A DNA stretch of 7,666 bases from Caedimonas varicaedens (GTDB lineage Bacteria > Pseudomonadota > Alphaproteobacteria > Caedimonadales > Caedimonadaceae), in contig BBVC01000084.1 of assembly GCA_001192655.1 (NCBI GenBank), positions 1 through 7,666 of the forward strand, read 5' to 3'. Below the pieces are notes generated by a model. That model worked only from the letters and a program-made list of their open reading frames with translations. It made no database searches and had not been told where the DNA came from. The position numbers and the translations under genes are program-made. Of this stretch, positions 1 to 7,666 are shown piece by piece (position 1 is the stretch's first letter; the number at the start of each line of letters is the position of its first letter).

Positions 1-7
1 AACCATT

Positions 8-145
8 TTAAAGGTTTTTAGCTATATCTTCATATTCAAAAAGAGGAGCAGTCACCCTGATTTCTTCGTCGTCATCATGAGATATTTCAGTTGCCTGAAG
101 AGAAAGAGAACATAAAACAGAAATGAAGAAAAGAAGTCGATTCAT
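8..145 (-). CDS. hypothetical small secreted peptide, 45 aa (below the length cut-off of the supplied ORF track)
   Basis: Hand translation of the minus strand: ATG at 145-143, TAA at 10-8, giving MNRLLFFISVLCSLSLQATEISHDDDEEIRVTAPLFEYEDIAKNL. A GAGGA Shine-Dalgarno-like motif (complement of 157-153) lies 7 nt before the ATG. The N-terminus looks like a Sec signal peptide: Arg3, hydrophobic core LLFFISVLCSLSL, and a possible LQA cleavage site. The predicted mature part is short and very acidic. No homology can be asserted. Confidence 0.35.
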   Translation of the reverse strand: MNRLLFFISVLCSLSLQATEISHDDDEEIRVTAPLFEYEDIAKNL

Positions 146-199
146 TATATTTTCCTCATGTACTGCATGTAAAAATTTGAGTTAGCTTGATTGATCAAA

Positions 200-2623
200 T
201 TAATGTCTTTGAATATCATCTTCTTCTGTGGACTGAGAGGATTGTAGGGGATCATTGGCTGGTGGATTCCAAACAATAGGTTTAGGGACACGAACAAGCG
301 CATGCCCCATCGCTTCATCCACTGTCTTGACGGGAATAATTTCAAGCCCTTCCTTCACATTTTCCGGAATTTCAGGAAGATCTTTTGCATTATCATAAGG
401 AATCAAAACTTTTTTAATTCCACCACGATGCGCTGCCAACAACTTTTCCTTAAGACCCCCAATAGCAAGAACTCGGCCGCGCAAGGTAATTTCACCTGTC
501 ATGGCAACATCACGGCGTACAGGAATGCCTGTCAGTACAGAAAGAATCGATGTACACATGGCTACCCCCGCAGAAGGACCATCCTTGGGAATCGCACCTT
601 CCGGAACGTGAACGTGAATATCTGTTTTTTCAAAAATCGGTGGTTGAATGCCAAAGTGGGCAGCACGAGAACGCACAAAGCTGGCAGCTGCCTGGACCGA
701 TTCTTGCATCACCTCGCCCAACTTGCCTGTAATAGTCATTTTTCCTTTTCCAGGCAACATAACTGCTTCAATTATCAAAAGATCTCCCCCAAACTCAGTC
801 CATGCCAGACCGGTGGTCATTCCAACCAGATCTTCTTCCTCAGAGACTCCGTAATGGAAACGGGTGACGCCCAGAAATTCACCTAAGTTCTGTTCTGTTA
901 CGCGAATGACTTCAACTTTATTCGTCATAATTTCTTTTGTTGCTTTGCGTAAAAGCTTGGCAATCTCACGTTCAAGGCTACGGACACCCGCTTCGCGGGT
1001 ATACAGGCGTATAATCTGACGCAAGGATGCTTCATCGATCGACCATTCTTTTTCCTTCAGTCCGTGTGCCTTAAGCTCTTTAGGGATAAGATGACGACGA
1101 GCAATTTCAATTTTCTCGTCTTCCGTATATCCGGAAACATGAATAATCTCCAGACGATCTTGTAACGGCTGTGGCATCTGCAGGCTATTAGCCGTCGTGA
1201 CAAACAAAACATCGGAAAGATCATAATCCAATTCCAGATAATGATCATTGAAAGTATTGTTCTGTTCGGGATCCAGTACTTCCAGCAGGGCAGAGGAAGG
1301 ATCTCCTCGCCAATCTGAACCCAGCTTGTCAATTTCATCCAGCAGAAAGAGAGGGTTAGATGAACCTGCTTTCTTCATCCCTTGAATAACTTTTCCTGGC
1401 ATTGATCCTATATAGGTGCGGCGATGACCCCGAATTTCGGCCTCATCTCGTACGCCACCCAGCGACATTCGAACGAAATCACGACCCGTCGCGCGCGCAA
1501 TGGAGCGACCCAGGGAAGTTTTGCCAACACCTGGCGGACCGACAAGACAGAGGATAGGCCCCTTGATTTTTCCTACCCGACTTTGAACGGCCAAATATTC
1601 TAAGATACGTTCTTTTACTTTTTCAAGCCCATAGTGTTCTTCGTTTAGAATTTTCTCCGCTTGGATCAAATCTTTTTTGATCTTGCTATATTTTTTCCAG
1701 GGGATACTTAAGAGCCAGTCAAGATAATTACGTACAACCGTTGCTTCAGCTGACATCGGACTCATCGTGCGAAGCTTTTTAATCTCGGACATCGCTTTGG
1801 TCTGCGCTTCTTTGGAAAGCTTTGTTTTTTTGATACGTCGCTCAAGTTCACTGATCTCATCGCGTCCGTCTTCAGTTTCGCCTAATTCTTTTTGAATAGC
1901 TTTCATTTGCTCATTCAAATAGTATTCGCGCTGAGATTTTTCCATCTGGCGTTTGACGCGATTACGAATACGTTTTTCAGCTTGTAAAACACTGATCTCG
2001 GCTTCCATAAAATTACAGATTTTTTCCAGTTGCTCGCTAAAATCCAAAGCTTCAAGGATCTTCTGCTTTTCAGAGACTTTAAGCGTTAAATGAGAGGCGA
2101 TGGTATCTACCAATTTTTCAGGTTGATCGATTTTGGAAATAGAAACTAGGACATCCGGTGGAATTTTGTTGTTGAGCTTAATATATTGATCAAAGAAAGA
2201 TAAAGCTGTGCGGATGAGGGCTTCATTTTCAGCTCCCTGGGGAGTAGAAGTTTCAATCGGTTCAACATAGGCCTGAAAGAAATGATCCGTTTCTGTAAAT
2301 CTTAGCACCCGGGCACGTTGCGTCCCTTCTACCAATACCTTGACAGTCCCATCCGGCAGTTTCAATAACTGCAAAATATGTCCAATCGTTCCTATAGAAA
2401 ATAAATCACGAGGAGCTGGATCGTCTTTGGACGCATCCTTTTGAGTCAGTAGTAAAACTCTCTGATCTTGCTTGATAACAGATTCCAGAGCGCTGACTGA
2501 CTTTTCCCGTCCCACAAATAAGGGGACAATCATATGGGGGAACACAACAATGTCCCTTAATGGCAAAATTGGCAGTAAGGCCCCTTGGGGAACTTCAAGA
2601 CGAATGTCTTTCTTCAATGGCAT
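200..2623 (-). CDS. lon: ATP-dependent Lon protease (LonA type)
   Basis: 807-aa ORF. N-terminal Lon substrate-binding domain ([26 protein letters not shown]). AAA+ Walker A GPPGVGKT and Walker [11 protein letters not shown]-terminal protease domain with the catalytic Ser motif PKDGPSAG and the Lys-containing [10 protein letters not shown]. An in-frame TGA 6 codons upstream leaves ATG 2623 as the only plausible start. Sits directly after clpX, as in the canonical operon. Confidence 0.97.
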
Positions 2624-2665
2624 ATCCTCATTTGGAAAATCATAATAACCCCAGTTAAAATCAGA

Positions 2666-3931
2666 TCAACCTTGATTTGATTTTAGCTCAGATTTTTTGC
2701 TATAGGTTAACAAAGGTTGCGCGCGACCCTCAACAACGTCCCGATTTATAACGACCTCTTCAATGCCAGTACTCCCTGGAAGTTCATACATGGTTTCAAG
2801 CAAAATATCCTCCATAATGGAACGCAAGCCCCTGGCACCAGTGTTACGAGTAATTGCCCGTTGTGCTATAGCCAATAACGCATCTTCTGTAAAGGTTAGC
2901 TTTACTTCTTCCATCTCAAACAATTTTTGATATTGTTTTACAATCGCATTTTTGGGTTGTTGCAGAATTTGAATCAAGGCAGGCTCATCCAAATCTTCTA
3001 ACGTCGCCACAACAGGCAAACGCCCAACAAATTCTGGAATAAGACCATATTTTAAAAGATCTTCTGGTTCTACATCTTTCAGAAGGTCTCCTGTTCTGCG
3101 GTCTTCTGGTGATTTTACATCAGCCCCAAACCCAATAGATGATCCTTTACCGCGAGCGCTAATAATCTTTTCAAGTCCCGCAAACGCCCCTCCACAAACA
3201 AAAAGAATATTTGTCGTATCAACTTGCAAAAATTCCTGTTGAGGATGCTTTCGACCTCCTTGAGGGGGAACAGAAGCAATCGTTCCTTCCATGATTTTTA
3301 ATAACGCTTGCTGAACGCCCTCTCCTGACACGTCCCGCGTAATCGATGGATTGTCAGATTTACGAGAAATTTTATCTACTTCATCAATATAGACGATGCC
3401 ACGCTGAGCTTTTTCAACGTTATATTCTGCAGATTGCAAAAGTTTAAGGATGATATTTTCAACATCTTCACCAACGTAACCTGCTTCGGTCAGTGTTGTG
3501 GCGTCGGCGATTGTAAAAGGAACGTCAAGAATACGCGCTAATGTTTGGGCTAACAGGGTTTTACCGCAACCCGTAGGGCCAATCAACAGAATATTGGATT
3601 TTGCAAGCTCAACATCCGCAGTCTTAGAAAAAGTATCAATTCGCTTGTAATGATTGTACACAGCAACCGCTAGAACACGTTTTGCATGAACTTGTCCAAT
3701 GACATAATCATCTAAAACCTTACAGATAGTCTTCGGAGAAGGGACCCCTTTTTCAGAAATGGGCAAAGCTCCCTTATTTTCTTCTTGAATAATTTCGATA
3801 CAAAGGTCGACACATTCATCGCAGATAAAAACACTGGGACCTGCAATAAGTTTGCGAACTTCATGCTGACTTTTCCCACAAAAGGAACAATGAAGGATTT
3901 CTTTCGTCTGTTCGTCTGATGATTTAGTCAT
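2666..3931 (-). CDS. clpX: ATP-dependent Clp protease ATP-binding subunit ClpX
   Basis: 421-aa ORF. N-terminal C4 zinc-binding domain (CSFCGK...CDEC). Walker A GPTGCGKT and Walker [13 protein letters not shown]-type ClpP-docking loop (SSIGFGA). Sensor-2 region GARGLRS. Position between clpP and lon. Confidence 0.97.
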
Positions 3932-4088
3932 ATTTTAGCCACTTTAAATCATTGTTTTTAAGAGAACGCTCATTAATGTATAACAAAATTAAATTTCTTG
4001 TCTTGTCTCTTTTTCAGGAACCATATTCTCAGGATGCCTAAAAACCCTATAAAAAAACGTTAACAACTAAAATAATTTTAGCTAATTT

Positions 4089-4733
4089 TTATTTTTTCAC
4101 GTCAGTTGTCCCTGGGCGGACATTAATAATCTCATCTACAAGCCCAAAATCCTTTGCCTCTTCTGCCGACATAAAATTATCACGCTCTACAGATTCTTCA
4201 ATGACTTTCAAGGGTTTTCCCGTCCTCTCAGCTAAAATTGCATTTAAACGAGCACGTGTTTTTAAAATTTCTCTTGCAGCAATTTCAATATCTGTCGCCT
4301 GTCCTCGAGCCCCCCCATGTGGCTGGTGAATCATTATGCGTGCATTGGGAAGGGCATAACGTTTCCCCTTAATACCTGCACATAAGAGTAAAGATCCCAT
4401 AGAGGCAGCCTGCCCCATGACAATTGTGGAAACATCACATCGAATGTAATGCATCGTATCAAAAATAGCGAAACCAGAAGTGACAACGCCACCGGGTGAA
4501 TTAATATAAAAAGAAATATCTTTCTTTGGATTTTCAGATTCCAAAAAGAGAAATTGCGCGCAAATCAAATTTGCAACATCATCGTTGACCTCGCCGGTCA
4601 AAAAAACGATGCGTTCTTTAAGAAGTCTTGAAAAAATATCAAAAGATCTTTCTCCGCGTGCGGTTTGCTCAATAACCATTGGAATGAGCGTATTCTGAAA
4701 TTGGTCTTTTGCATCAATCATGGTTTTCTCCAT
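4089..4733 (-). CDS. clpP: ATP-dependent Clp protease proteolytic subunit ClpP (peptidase S14)
   Basis: 214-aa ORF with the conserved [29 protein letters not shown]-terminal region. Catalytic Ser context [11 protein letters not shown], His context RIMIHQP, and Asp in the VERDNFMSA segment. The start is ambiguous. A second in-frame ATG at 4721 is preceded by GGAG (4731-4728) with a 6-nt spacer, whereas ATG 4733 has no obvious SD. The real start may therefore be 4721 (210 aa). Confidence 0.95.
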
Positions 4734-4813
4734 TTATTATTTCTTGTGCGTATTACCGTTCAATGAGGTTATTTCCCTCTTCTAACCTTTAAAATCCTTT
4801 GAGCGTATCCTAT

Positions 4814-6169
4814 TTATGAGTGTTCATCTTCTTGGGTAATGGCGTCAACAGATTTTTTAAGTTCAGCAAAAGAAACCTGTTTTTCATTGATTGTTGCTTT
4901 TTGAAGAATGAGCTCGATAACTTTATCTTCAAATATAGGCGCTCTCAGAGCTGCCTGAGCCTGGGTATTAGAGCGATAGTAATCAAGGACTTTCTGTTCC
5001 ATGCCTGGATATTTCCTGACTTCCTGAGTTATGGCTTTTTCCAATTCCTTTTGTGACACCGTCACATGATGCTCACGACCAATTTCAGCCAGCAACAAAC
5101 CTAGAAGAACACGGCGCTCAGCAATTTTCTGATATTGTTTTTTCAGCTTTGTTTCATCTTTTTCAGACTCTTTTTTATCTTTTGTCTTAGGAGAAGATTG
5201 AGCCATTTCTTTTTGAAGTTGTTCCCAGATAGACTTAAACTCAAGCTCTACCAGTCCTTGCGGGATATCAAATTTGAAACTTTCTGCAAATTTATCCAAA
5301 ATTTTGCGTTTTGCGTCCAGTAAGGACATATAGCTGTGTTCTTCTGAAAGTTGATCTGAAATAGCTTTTTTAAGCTCTTCAATAGAAGATTTTCCAAATT
5401 TTTCTGCAAATTCCTTAGTAAGTTCAGGAAGAACTTTTTCTTTTACATTTTTTATTTCGATAGAAAAATGTGTCTTCTTTCCCGCAAGATCCTTGGCCTG
5501 ATAATCAGCAGGGAAATCAATATCAAATTCCTTTTTATCTCCGGCTTTCAATCCAATAAGTTGATCTTCGAAACCAGGAATAAAGGTATTTGATCCTAAT
5601 TCCAGATCCATCCCATCAGAAGCGCCCCCTGGAATGGGTTTTCCTGCGATTGTTCCGTTAAATGCCAAGTGAACAGCATGTCCTTTTTTCGCCTTGGTTT
5701 TTTCATCGACCAGTTTGAATTCTGTATGATTCTTCCTGAGTCTTTCCAAAGCTTCTTCTACTTCCTTGTCATCGACCTTACAAACGCAATGATCAAATTT
5801 AAATTTAGAAAGATCAACTTTCTCAATATCTGGCAAAAGCTCTATGATAACTTTAGATTCAAGTGCCTTGCCTTCTTCGTAGTCTTTTGTGTCTACTTTA
5901 GGCTGAAGAGCAACCCGCAGTTTATGTTTATCGATAATATGACGCGTTCCTTCTTGCAGAACGTGCTCTAAAACTTCCGTTTTGACACGTGACGCATAAC
6001 GTTGCTTAAGGATTGGCATGGGAATCTTTCCCGAACGAAAGCCATCAACCTTCACAGAGAGGCTTAGTTTCTCTAATCGCTCTTCCAGTTTTTTTTCAAT
6101 TTCTTGAGAGGGGATAACCAGATTAAATTCCCGTATTAACCCTTCGGACTTTGTTTGTGTGATATCCAT
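4814..6169 (-). CDS. tig: trigger factor (ribosome-associated chaperone / FKBP-type PPIase)
   Basis: 451-aa ORF. N-terminal ribosome-binding signature GFRSGKIP (GFRxGxxP). Central FKBP-like PPIase segment (NTFIPGFEDQLIGLKAGD). Lys/Glu-rich helical C-terminal domain. Canonical position immediately upstream of clpP. Confidence 0.95.
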   Translation of the reverse strand: MDITQTKSEGLIREFNLVIPSQEIEKKLEERLEKLSLSVKVDGFRSGKIPMPILKQRYASRVKTEVLEHVLQEGTRHIIDKHKLRVALQPKVDTKDYEEGKALESKVIIELLPDIEKVDLSKFKFDHCVCKVDDKEVEEALERLRKNHTEFKLVDEKTKAKKGHAVHLAFNGTIAGKPIPGGASDGMDLELGSNTFIPGFEDQLIGLKAGDKKEFDIDFPADYQAKDLAGKKTHFSIEIKNVKEKVLPELTKEFAEKFGKSSIEELKKAISDQLSEEHSYMSLLDAKRKILDKFAESFKFDIPQGLVELEFKSIWEQLQKEMAQSSPKTKDKKESEKDETKLKKQYQKIAERRVLLGLLLAEIGREHHVTVSQKELEKAITQEVRKYPGMEQKVLDYYRSNTQAQAALRAPIFEDKVIELILQKATINEKQVSFAELKKSVDAITQEDEHS

Positions 6170-6213
6170 AAATCTGCGCCTAAAATTATAACGTTAATCA
6201 CTTTACACATGTA

Positions 6214-6298
6214 TGGTGCGGGCGGAGGGACTTGAACCCCCATGACTCGCGTCGCCAGAACCTAAATCTGGTGTGTCTGCCAATTCCACCACGCCCGC
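6214..6298 (-). tRNA. tRNA-Leu, anticodon TAG (UAG), class II with long variable arm, CCA encoded
   Basis: The reverse complement reads GCGGGCGTGGTGGAATTGGCAGACACACCAGATTTAGGTTCTGGCGACGCGAGTCATGGGGGTTCAAGTCCCTCCGCCCGCACCA (85 nt). The 7-bp acceptor stem GCGGGCG/CGCCCGC is perfect. The anticodon arm is CCAGA-TTTAGGT-TCTGG, with TAG in the anticodon position. A roughly 14-nt variable arm is typical of Leu. The T arm has the canonical TTCAAGT loop, and the 3' end is ACCA. Confidence 0.9.
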
Positions 6299-6516
6299 TC
6301 CCCCCACAGCTTTTCTGAAACAGATCGCTGAAGTGTAGTCACTTAATTCTGAATAAATCGTAAAGCGACTTTCTTGTTGATAGCCTTGATTTATCCAAAT
6401 TGCAATGGTTTCAGGTAGAATTTTGACATTTTTGTATTTTTTCTTATTGATTCAAAAGCTCCCTTTTTGATGTTGAGGGATCATCTTTATTTGCAAGGGC
6501 TTTCTTCCAGATGATA

Positions 6517-6545
6517 TTGTCAATCCGGGTCTTTTTTTATAGAAT
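6517..6545 (+). promoter_or_regulatory. candidate sigma70-type promoter for the plus-strand cassette (TTGTCA-N17-TAGAAT)
   Basis: TTGTCA at 6517-6522 (5/6 match to TTGACA), an exact 17-nt spacer, and TAGAAT at 6540-6545 (5/6 match to TATAAT). It lies about 38 nt upstream of the ATG at 6583. This is a sequence match only, and AT-rich DNA produces such matches easily. Confidence 0.3.
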
Positions 6546-6582
6546 TTTATATTCAGCAGATTTCAATATAGAATAAATTGGT

Positions 6583-7152
6583 ATGAATACACTGACAAAA
6601 AAAATTGATGAAATAATTCAGGAAACAGAGAGAATTTGGGAACGGAACCCCTTCGCCGGGACTTTCAGGGAAATTCCTTATGATCGTGAATTATACGGTA
6701 TTGCCAGCGGCGTAAAATGCACTCCACCAATAACCTTGAGTTCTGTTTTGGATAAGCTATTCCTTCTTGCTGCAGAAGACCATGAATTAGAGATTACCCT
6801 TCCCAATCACTTTCACTTCACTTTTCTGGCGCTTTCTTTTCCTCAATGGGAAAAGCTCGCTGATCTTCCGGTTGAACATAAAGAACTGCTTTTTCTTTCT
6901 GGAAAAATCCTGCATCGAGTTAATTGGAAATTATACCATTTAAGGCTTGTTGCGCTGAATAATACCCTTCTTCTTGTGGGAACGCCGGATGAGACCTCAG
7001 ACCTTTTGAGAAACGCGTATGCCCATTCGATTCTGGTTTCGGGTTGGAGAAAACATCTTGTTGCGCGTTATAGGGGGCTATCAACCCCGCCTTTGCTTTG
7101 GCACAGTACGTTGGCAAGAGCATTAACAGAAGCAAAGTTCAACGATTGTTAA
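6583..7152 (+). CDS. hypothetical protein, 189 aa; possible divergent 2H-phosphoesterase (LigT / cyclic phosphodiesterase-like) fold
   Basis: Only long ORF in this stretch. ATG 6583 is the only Met in the protein and a TAA lies 3 codons upstream. Two His-x-Thr-x motifs sit in hydrophobic strand-like contexts: H78-F-T80-F in ITLPNHFHFTFLAL, and H174-S-T176-L in PPLLWHSTLARAL. These resemble the LHLTLAFLG and PHITL(A/L)R motifs of LigT/ThpR-type 2H enzymes. Caveats: only 13 residues follow the second motif (known members have about 40-60), the 96-residue motif spacing is longer than usual, and the SD is weak. Confidence 0.6.
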   Translation: MNTLTKKIDEIIQETERIWERNPFAGTFREIPYDRELYGIASGVKCTPPITLSSVLDKLFLLAAEDHELEITLPNHFHFTFLALSFPQWEKLADLPVEHKELLFLSGKILHRVNWKLYHLRLVALNNTLLLVGTPDETSDLLRNAYAHSILVSGWRKHLVARYRGLSTPPLLWHSTLARALTEAKFNDC

Positions 7153-7192
7153 AAAAATTACAATTAAAGGGGCAATTTGCAGGAGTTACAGA

Positions 7193-7375
7193 ATGCTAAA
7201 AATCTATTGTTATTTTGCTCTCGAAGAGGGATGGCTCACTGGTTCACTCTCTAGTCATGAACCAGTGAACCACTTAGGTTCAAAACCTTATCCAGCAAGG
7301 GCTAGAGGGTGGTTCACAGAATGCATCAGTGAACCACTCAGTGATCCAGTAACAAAAATGGAGATCATGCAATGA
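7193..7375 (+). CDS. doubtful small ORF, 60 aa, overlapping the repeat array
   Basis: For: AGGAG at 7181-7185 lies 7 nt before ATG 7193, and its TGA stop overlaps the next ORF's ATG (ATGA at 7372-7375). Against: most of its length consists of 8-nt DNA repeats that fall in different codon phases, and the composition is atypical (W/C/P-rich, no recognisable fold). This may be a non-coding leader instead. Confidence 0.25.
   Translation: MLKIYCYFALEEGWLTGSLSSHEPVNHLGSKPYPARARGWFTECISEPLSDPVTKMEIMQ
7232..7272. repeat. inverted repeat 1: two tandem 8-mers on each arm (TGGCTCAC TGGTTCAC - 9 nt - ATGAACCA GTGAACCA)
   Basis: Base-by-base pairing of 7232-7246 with 7272-7258 gives 14 of 15 pairs, of which 11 are contiguous (7236-7246 with 7258-7268). 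The single C/A mismatch is at 7235/7269. The loop is 11 nt (7247-7257). Confidence 0.85.
7307..7350. repeat. inverted repeat 2 (GTGGTTCAC-N11-GTGAACCAC) followed by tandem 12-mers CAGTGAACCACT / CAGTGATCCAGT
   Basis: 7309-7317 is perfectly complementary to 7329-7337 (9 bp), extendable by G/T and G/C at 7308/7338 and 7307/7339. The spacer contains the ATGCAT palindrome. The 12-mer 7327-7338 is an exact copy of 7263-7274, and 7339-7350 is a 10/12 tandem copy. Confidence 0.85.
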
Positions 7376-7659
7376 CACAGCAAGCTCTTACAGCCTCTGA
7401 ATTGGCACTGAGAATTATTAATCGCAATCAAAAGAAGATTGTAGAAGAAAAAACAACCACTGTGACGTCTCACGTCAGATCATTTGATCTACGTCAACAT
7501 GTTGAAACCGTTTATCAGGATACTCTTTCTGCATTCAAAAAAGCGTTAGAAACGATGCCTGAATATCTATCGTATGAACAAGCCAGAGTCCAATGGAAAG
7601 ATCTTCATAATCTGGAACACGCCAGAATCCGCAATGAAGCTCTGAAGACCTATAGCTAA
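7372..7659 (+). CDS. hypothetical protein, 95 aa, predicted mostly helical, charged
   Basis: Complete ORF from ATG 7372 to TAA 7657-7659. GGAGA at 7360-7364 lies 7 nt before the ATG. The composition is plausible for a soluble helical protein (MTQQALTASELALRIINRNQKKIVEEK...EALKTYS). I recognise no family signature. Confidence 0.55.
   Translation: MTQQALTASELALRIINRNQKKIVEEKTTTVTSHVRSFDLRQHVETVYQDTLSAFKKALETMPEYLSYEQARVQWKDLHNLEHARIRNEALKTYS
7463..7505. repeat. three abutting short palindromes inside the 95-aa ORF
   Basis: TGACGT-ctc-ACGTCA at 7463-7477, AGATCA-tt-TGATCT at 7477-7490, and the perfect 12-bp palindrome TCAACATGTTGA at 7494-7505. ACGTCA also recurs as a direct repeat at 7472-7477 and 7491-7496. 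Confidence 0.6.
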
Positions 7660-7666
7660 CAACATA

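Follow-up and report, generated by a model that had tools for sequence, protein, structure and literature searches.

Introduction

In the staphylococcal pathogenicity islands (SaPIs), the origin of replication (ori) lies immediately downstream of rep and consists of 6-12 iterons, at least two per side in opposite directions, to which the C-terminal domain of the self-loading initiator-helicase Rep binds (PMC9371898). The origins of E. coli phage-inducible chromosomal islands (PICIs) contain two iteron sets (PMC6092414). In satellite phage P4, the alpha gene is directly followed by the cis replication region (crr), in which an 8-bp 'ori type 1 repeat', TGTTCACC, recurs in tandem and inverted copies (record X51522); the alpha protein comprises primase, helicase and a C-terminal DNA-binding domain, these being a DnaG-type primase, a superfamily 3 (SF3) helicase and a winged helix (PMC2777425). 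Here we analyze a stretch of 7,666 nucleotides (nt) from Caedimonas varicaedens (assembly GCA_001192655.1, contig BBVC01000084.1, positions 1 to 7,666 of the forward strand), referred to throughout as the window, in which seven copies of one 8-nt word family lie in two opposed sets. We propose that this array forms the core, made of iterons, of the origin from which a phage-like integrative element replicates, and that it is bound by the primase-helicase (Rep) encoded just upstream of it in that element; we regard this reading as probable, at roughly 0.75. C. varicaedens is a Holosporales endosymbiont of Paramecium.

Seven copies of one word in two opposed sets

Reading of the sequence between 6900 and 7666 placed seven copies of one word family within 119 nt. 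The forward words are TGGCTCAC at 7232 and TGGTTCAC at 7240 and 7310, and the reverse words are ATGAACCA at 7257, GTGAACCA at 7265 and 7329, and GTGATCCA at 7341, so that two forward and two reverse copies (7232-7272) are followed by one forward and two reverse copies (7310-7348). The array has the following parts:

7232..7272, no strand: putative iteron cluster 1, with TGGCTCAC at 7232 and TGGTTCAC at 7240, a 9-nt spacer (TCTCTAGTC), then ATGAACCA at 7257 and GTGAACCA at 7265
7273..7308, no strand: central region between the clusters, which holds the partly conserved CCTTATCCA
7309..7350, no strand: putative iteron cluster 2, with TGGTTCAC at 7310, an 11-nt spacer, GTGAACCA at 7329 and the degenerate GTGATCCA at 7341

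The exact word TGGYTCAC occurs five times in the window, always within 7232-7336, as compared with an expectation of 0.29 (standard deviation 0.55), and chance is excluded, as none of 200 dinucleotide shuffles of the window reached five occurrences. With up to one mismatch to TGGTTCAC allowed, seven matches were found in the 205 nt around the array versus a single one in the remaining 7,461 nt; five of the array copies are exact, and the other two carry one mismatch. In addition, a repeat finder returned an inverted repeat with arms at 7232-7246 and 7258-7272 (14 of 15 positions paired, 11 nt between), the perfect 9-bp inverted pair formed by GTGGTTCAC (7309-7317) and GTGAACCAC (7329-7337), and two occurrences of the 12-mer CAGTGAACCACT, 64 nt apart, together with a degenerate tandem copy.

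This anatomy agrees with a preliminary description of the same DNA: its repeat coordinates and sequences all match, both inverted repeats and the spaced 12-mer were reproduced, and its statement that no exact copy of the 8-mer exists elsewhere in the window holds. That the repeats are not intrinsic terminators was also correctly stated, since no terminator-like site was found in 6100-7666. As a separate observation, the 9-mer ACAGAATGC is present exactly twice, at 7188-7196 and 7316-7324 (128 nt apart), one copy spanning the rep stop and the start of the next open reading frame (ORF), the other lying within the spacer of the second inverted pair; this may be due to chance.

The array fits the SaPI/PICI pattern of at least two opposed repeats on each side. 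As in those systems, where the ori adjoins the 3' side of rep or of a fused pri-rep gene, its two opposed sets of 8-mers begin shortly (34 nt) after the rep stop, and the Rep ends in a helix-turn-helix (HTH). SaPI iterons, in contrast, are 5-6 nt long and surround an AT-rich centre, whereas here the words have 8 nt and an 8-nt tandem period, and the centre is not AT-rich. Moreover, the SaPI Rep carries a C-terminal winged helix and a helicase of a kind described as SF3 or superfamily 6 (SF6) (PMC9371898), while here a resolvase/transposase-like HTH follows an AAA_25 helicase resembling RSF1010 RepA. Unlike in SaPIs and PICIs, the putative origin also lies within a translated frame.

A fixed layout with a changing word

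All examined relatives with an HTH at the end of Rep have an array of the same design after the rep stop (related loci are given here as L001, L002 and so on). The contigs of L009 and L010 stop short of rep and show only the array upstream of the homologue of a 124-amino acid (aa) protein gene. The distance from the rep stop to the first word is 34 nt in the window, L001 and L003, 56 in L004, 107 in L014, 22 in L013, 20 in L015 and approximately 10 in L017. The word differs from lineage to lineage, and it is listed below with the recognition helix of the C-terminal HTH of the corresponding Rep:

Window, L001, L002 and L003: word TGGTTCAC; recognition helix INRSKVQRLL in L001 and INRSKIQRLL in L003
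L004, L005, L006 and L010: word TGGCTCAC; recognition helix INRNKVQRLI in L004
L014: word GTGTTCAC; recognition helix MSLGLVNKKI
L013: word TGTTTCAC, in 12 copies; recognition helix LSESTVYRKI
L015: word TGTTGCAA / TTGCAACA; recognition helix INRTTVYRNL, set against TGTTGCAA
L009: word TGTTCACG, with three of the copies direct and at spacings of 10 and 12 nt
L017: word TGTCCCRC, arranged as TGTCCCGC TGTCCCGC tcccctagggt GTGGGACA GTGGGACA

Six other lineages share the layout of two tandem words, two inverted words, an interval of about 45 nt and a further inverted pair. Measured from start to start, the six core slots are spaced by 8, 17, 8, 45 and 19 nt in the window as well as in L003 and L004; L013 has 8, 18, 8, 44 and 19, and L014 has 8, 21, 8, 41 and 22. 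The arrangement and spacing of cluster 1 recur in L003, L004, L013, L014, L015 and L017, and the forward and first reverse copies of cluster 2 are at homologous positions in L003, L004, L013 and L014, where the degenerate third copy has counterparts too. Linkage to rep, layout and lineage-specific word are directly visible in the aligned loci. Lineages with different words have different Rep HTHs, and L001 and L003, which have one word in common, share the HTH; altogether, six distinct words stand with six distinct recognition helices, a qualitative correspondence which suggests that word and helix change together.

Outside the arrays, matches to each lineage's word are at chance density over approximately 120 kb of related loci, and arrays are confined to the 3' end of rep, which speaks to the earlier proposal to look for the array at unrelated sites. 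These observations bear on the idea of a generic dispersed repeat, similar to repetitive extragenic palindromes (REP) or miniature inverted-repeat transposable elements (MITE), or of a chance or assembly product lacking function. Two abrupt breakpoints around the window copy, the draft state of the genome and the loss of rep from that copy speak in its favor; nevertheless, the word is nowhere else in the window, and the layout is conserved across lineages whose Reps are only 42-76% identical to the L004 Rep, and we consider such an explanation extremely improbable.

Some further features were noticed around the arrays. In L013, the core is bracketed by a 44-nt direct repeat with 95% identity and a 210-nt distance (11898-11941 and 12108-12151), and in L004 by a direct repeat of about 25 nt (TGAGCCACCCTAAAA...) at ~3077 and ~3229; no such bracketing repeat surrounds the core array in the window lineage.

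Rep and the parent element

The long gene upstream of the array is a predicted primase-helicase, and we named its product Rep. Members of the family carry PriCT_2 (E ~1e-19 to 1e-20), AAA_25 (E ~1e-29 to 1e-30) and a C-terminal HTH_23, all of which exceed the Pfam cut-offs (for the L001 product, 1e-20, 4e-30 and 25.6 bits against a cut-off of 24.6, respectively). The helicase part matches the RSF1010 RepA structure 1g8y, and PHROG matches are to DNA primase and primase/helicase families. The C-terminal domain is a tri-helical HTH of the resolvase/transposase kind, with no winged helix.

Roughly 320 Rep homologues were identified. Searches of phage, plasmid and contig collections for wider relatives returned little. 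Against described phages and plasmids, tblastn with Rep gave only distant relatives (23-35% identity), with the exception of a Nitrobacter remnant described below. Viral contigs contained L011 only, and genome contigs L012 only, the latter from an unrelated Clostridia metagenome-assembled genome; neither was informative. L011 is 47% identical within the helicase part; the alignment covers Rep residues 332-585 and stops where the 452-aa ORF of L011 stops, leaving the HTH tail unmatched, and no array follows this rep-like ORF. For the 124-aa family, no relatives were found in the viral contig or genome contig collections, and metagenome contigs gave L009 only.

In L001 and L002, the gene order is the long gene (470 aa visible), a 60-aa ORF, the 124-aa gene, a 68-aa gene and AAA_24. 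In L004, HTH_17 is followed by genes of 122 and 633 aa, a 72-aa ORF, a 123-aa gene, genes of 101 and 138 aa, RecT and a capsid-like gene, the member of the 124-aa family being 56% identical. Every complete element has AAA_24, DUF669 or RecT downstream of the array, and upstream there is an integrase, as in L013, L014 and on the P0007 contig, or a gene with HTH_17, as in L004 and L014; on longer contigs, an integrase lies upstream, and lysozyme, DNA methylase and similar genes lie downstream. By their predicted products, the genes around the array are a replication and recombination module, and the parent is, on the same grounds, a phage-like integrative element. The L014 contig also has an IS1595-family transposase gene and, just past the element at the contig end, a Cas9-like gene (HNH_4, RuvC_III); the coordinates are 17580-18257 and 21282-21863.

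With regard to P4, the likeness to crr is in the use of an 8-bp repeat as tandem pairs and inverted copies directly downstream of a primase-helicase gene. The window word TGGTTCAC shares GTTCAC with the P4 repeat, yet it is a different octamer, while the words of L009 (1-100) and L014 (11970-12080), TGTTCAC-G and G-TGTTCAC, match the first 7 nt of the P4 word (L016 4291-4590 and 9310-9413). The L014 Rep has no detectable similarity to P4 alpha (best BLASTP E = 2.1) and their Pfam domains differ; moreover, P4 depends on a pair of separate clusters (ori and crr) with about 4.5 kb between them, while only one cluster per element was seen here. On account of the dissimilar initiators and the two-cluster layout of P4, the resemblance of the words looks convergent or coincidental. 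A second word cluster in the elements, comparable to the P4 pair, was considered and rejected, as off-array matches are at chance density and the TGGTTCAC at L004 5147 is isolated. Altogether, the comparison indicates that the array probably works like the SaPI/PICI ori and P4 crr while belonging to neither family.

The word is probably conserved as DNA

Inverted repeats in a transcribed region could also represent hairpins in a polycistronic rep mRNA, acting in processing, stability or translational coupling, or a small structured RNA. Changes between lineages do look 'compensatory' across the arms, the region is transcribed and probably translated within an operon, and the array folds better than shuffled sequences on both strands (z-scores of -4.0 for the + strand and -5.2 for the - strand, which folds into four hairpins). 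Any inverted repeat would yield such z-scores, and covariation alone cannot decide, because the same 'compensatory' changes are expected of hairpin arms and of inverted iterons. The discriminating question is whether copies that never pair with one another are also kept identical. Within a lineage, identity was 0.924 between non-partner copies (n=48) and 0.906 between hairpin partners (n=12), as opposed to 0.681 for the same slot compared between lineages (n=36). In the contrast of compensatory changes with half-site conservation, which had been put forward earlier, the arm changes appear compensatory, yet non-partners match as well as partners, something that base pairing does not demand. As non-partner copies are as alike as partners, a common protein reader, rather than RNA folding, would impose the word.

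Other observations are in line with this. Runs of three direct copies, 10-12 nt apart and with no nearby inverted partner, are present in L009 and L013. Which strand the few mismatches favor depends on the relative: with the C at 7235, the + strand has a C-A mismatch where the - strand has G-U, whereas with the L003 T equivalent to 7317, the + strand has U-G where the - strand has A-C. A scan of the whole window against Rfam 15, with E up to 1, returned the tRNA-Leu at 6217-6298 only, no terminator was found, and ribosomes traversing the frame described below would unfold such hairpins. The structured leader or noncoding RNA suggested in the preliminary description is consequently a very unlikely explanation. 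On the compared sequences, the constraint is that every copy equals its lineage's word, as would be expected of a common protein reader.

The array is also overlapped by a short frame, which deserves attention on its own:

7193..7375, + strand: 60-codon frame through the array, its ATG overlapping the rep stop (ATGCTAA) and its stop overlapping the next ATG (ATGA)

This is the only one of the six frames left open across the window, L003, L004, L013 and L014, and the words are phased so that the TGA of each reverse copy falls out of frame. Gene calls in L001 and L002 include this frame, and it is fused to the homologue of the 124-aa gene in L013 and L014. Between the window and L003, its 14 differences fall on the three codon positions as 5/5/4 and change 3 codons synonymously and 10 non-synonymously, while those in the neighboring 124-aa gene are divided 9/7/18. 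The even split and the excess of non-synonymous changes argue that the 60-aa ORF is without protein-level constraint, which bears out the earlier claim that constraint acts on the nucleic acid and not on the protein; its statement that the codon phase within this ORF varies from copy to copy was likewise correct. The simplest reading of the open frame is that ribosomes traverse the putative origin, coupling translation of the operon.

Phage lambda offers a precedent for such a double use of DNA, as the initiator-binding repeats of its ori lie in gene O, which codes for the initiator itself, where they encode the linker of a conserved protein. Here too, the repeats are within an ORF of the replication module, and the same DNA would be both coding and origin. 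Unlike in lambda, the frame is a separate one of 60 codons, or an N-terminal extension of the next gene, and has no protein-level conservation.

A stranded fragment in a host gene

In the window, the array sits in a 535-bp piece of the element which is spliced into a C. varicaedens host gene. Window positions 5693-7119 align with L008 1-1427 at 97.9% identity (blastn), L008 having the 226-aa host gene intact, while 7120-7654 align with L001 1334-1868 and L002 1306-1840 at 99.8% (1 mismatch in 535; blastn) and with L003 at 89.5% (blastn). Host and element homologies abut, with no overlap, at 7119/7120 (gttggcaaga before the junction, gcattaacag after it), and the right end of the fragment breaks within the 124-aa gene at 7654/7655 (cctata, followed by gctaacaacata). 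The 12 nt past the right breakpoint, GCTAACAACATA (7655-7666), have no match in L001-L008 and belong to neither the element nor the L008 host locus, which implies a further rearrangement or deletion alongside the insertion, or a chimeric assembly. No match to the 535-bp fragment was found among plasmids (blastn). The locus contains the following features:

6583..7119, + strand: 5' part of a host gene, 179 codons, no assigned function, cut at 7119 (intact, 226 aa, in L008)
6583-7152, + strand: 189-aa ORF, a chimera of the 179 host codons and 10 out-of-frame element codons
7120..7654, + strand: internal 535-bp fragment of the presumed phage-like integrative element, with both ends within genes
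7120..7198, + strand: 3' end of rep, the last 26 codons and stop, holding only the recognition-helix end of the C-terminal HTH (by alignment to the L001 rep)
7372..7659, + strand: truncated copy of the 124-aa gene, 95 codons, with homology stopping at 7654
Lon, ClpX and trigger factor of the window: GAO98735, GAO98736 and GAO98738 (exact match), with ClpP in the 90% cluster of GAO98737

The last of these belong to the minus strand of the window, which carries lon, clpX, clpP, tig and the tRNA-Leu; the 189-aa and 95-aa ORFs are located downstream of tig.

The preliminary description had named the 189-aa and 95-aa products as candidate binders of the array. According to blastn and to the lengths of full-length homologues (226 aa for the former; 123-124 aa, P0001-P0004, for the latter), both are truncation products of the junctions, which also explains why no exact record of either was found on look-up. 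Nothing meaningful was found for the host 226-aa homologue in PHROGs or NCBIfam, for the 189-aa and 95-aa ORFs of the window in Pfam, or for the 60-aa and 124-aa products in Pfam, PHROGs and NCBIfam.

Since rep is gone from the window, the array here is an orphan, and its function at this site is doubtful. One could imagine that such a fragment is retained as a chromosomal decoy, titrating the Rep of an incoming or resident element of the same specificity and thereby damping the replication of that element, or that it serves as a trans-fired origin amplifying lon-clpX-clpP-tig, and cloned phage origins do damp phage replication ('phage-encoded resistance'); still, we hold this to be highly unlikely.

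A second orphan was found in Nitrobacter hamburgensis X14 plasmid 2 (L017; NC_007960, 141250-141760), in which a 149-aa remnant of the Rep C-terminus (51% identity, HTH kept) is followed by a half-array of two TGTCCCGC, the spacer and two GTGGGACA, the whole being flanked by a gene pair for an AAA ATPase and a SAVED-domain protein and by a DNA methyltransferase gene. This Rep tail and half-array beside defence-type genes are compatible with repeated retention of such fragments, which they do not by themselves show.

Weighing Rep as the reader

The three roles listed in the preliminary description, namely operator of a toxin-antitoxin-like or phage-like module, iteron or centromere-like site, and structured RNA, had been left unranked. 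The iteron option has gained from the linkage to rep and from a word that changes with the HTH, and the other options were not supported. For a toxin-antitoxin-like autoregulated module, no such genes are present.

A more serious competitor is an operator or regulatory site through which another protein of the element (the 124-aa protein, for example, or the AlpA-like HTH_17 protein) controls the downstream replication and recombination genes, or a partition centromere. Head-to-head half-sites suit dimeric regulators, and in all close lineages the array has the 124-aa gene behind it, with that gene and the array-spanning frame even fused in L013 and L014. On the other hand, no promoter-like site was found on the + strand in 7100-7372, and the frames overlap as in a single operon, which does not support an operator placed upstream of a small ORF, as had been suggested. 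Moreover, the 124-aa protein has no DNA-binding match in Pfam, PHROG or NCBIfam, L015 keeps its array even though the next gene is called as 110 aa and may or may not belong to the 124-aa family, the L017 array persists beside a Rep C-terminal remnant only, and no parA/parB-like genes were seen in the loci that would fit a centromere. Taken together, an exclusively regulatory or partition role is unlikely, bearing in mind that an origin and a regulatory site are compatible and that Rep binding may also autoregulate.

Host initiator sites were also considered. In the iteron plasmid origins of RK2, pSC101, P1 and F, initiator repeats stand next to DnaA boxes and a DNA unwinding element; plasmid iterons are typically direct repeats of 17-22 bp, and a dedicated Rep recruits the host DnaB. 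The L014 array resembles these origins in that six DnaA-box-like sites, three of them exact TTATNCACA, flank it at about 15 times the density of the locus, and these sites would independently mark the array region as an origin. The loci differ from iteron plasmids in their 8-bp, mostly inverted words, in an initiator that brings its own helicase and primase, and in the absence of a good DnaA box from the window lineage. The L014 sites are TTATACACA, TTATCCACA, TTATCAACA, TTATACAGA, TTATACACA and TTATCAACA, at 11902-11960 and 12114-12133, with a spacing of about 11-12 nt; in L013, the corresponding flanks are occupied instead by triplets of the iteron word of that lineage.

Within the central region, the motif CCTTATCC(A) is partly conserved in four lineages (window 7282-7296, L004 3172-3186, L013 12043-12055), and CTTATCC is kept in the window, L003, L004, L010 and L013. 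Compared with the DnaA box, it reaches 8/9 as TTATCCACC in L004 and L010 and just 7/9 as TTATCCAGC in the window, and a DnaA box in the window array centre was rejected as evidence.

Several points weigh against a Rep-bound origin. The case rests on comparison throughout, the correspondence between HTH and word is qualitative and comes from about six lineages, and another protein of the element, for instance the 124-aa protein that always follows, could be the reader. The Rep HTH is of a simple resolvase/transposase-like kind, as opposed to the winged helix of P4 alpha and the SaPI Rep. Allowing up to one mismatch, TTATNCACA is absent from window positions 7120-7400 (one match in L004, six in L014). 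The array centre is not AT-rich, with about 51-60% AT in 20-nt segments versus 59% in the whole window (40-55% in the repeat clusters and 60% at 7280-7299), and the nearest AT-rich stretch, 7140-7219 (60-80% AT), is upstream of the array and partly within rep. Finally, rep is missing from the window, which makes the function of this copy doubtful, and the junctions at 7119/7120 and 7654/7655 may be assembly errors.

Proposed mechanism and implications

Despite these points, an iteron core read by Rep remains the explanation that we favor. In complete elements, the origin would start a few dozen bases past the rep stop, and the HTH of each Rep subunit would read one 8-bp word, with an extended consensus of about A-S-TGGTTCAC-TG. 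The two head-to-head word sets would position Rep assemblies in opposite orientations, upon which Rep would load itself, melt the DNA and prime bidirectional synthesis. Self-loading, melting and priming at the origin have been shown experimentally for the SaPI Rep at ori and for P4 alpha at ori/crr; for the present family, we infer Rep binding and origin firing from the comparison of loci. Ribosomes would read through the origin along the one open frame, which would tie rep to the downstream genes while its peptide is not conserved. The window copy has presumably lost its function, as it would act only if a Rep of the same specificity were supplied in trans.

The kind of feature is expected: in a new Rep/iteron family, as the compared sequences describe it, the array is a well-known type of element and no new type of signal, its general significance is modest, and a specialist would not be surprised by it. 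It is useful for annotation, and locally it corrects the existing picture, in that the 60-aa ORF would be a read-through frame over the origin and no conserved small protein, while the 189-aa and 95-aa ORFs represent truncation products.

For Holosporales-type and other alphaproteobacterial symbionts, for which genetic tools and replicons are scarce, the results would provide a concrete pair of origin and initiator from an uncharacterized family of phage-like elements. Moreover, a fixed layout in which both the 8-bp word and the recognition helix are swapped may serve as a natural experiment on the specificity of HTH-DNA recognition and on the evolution of replicon incompatibility.

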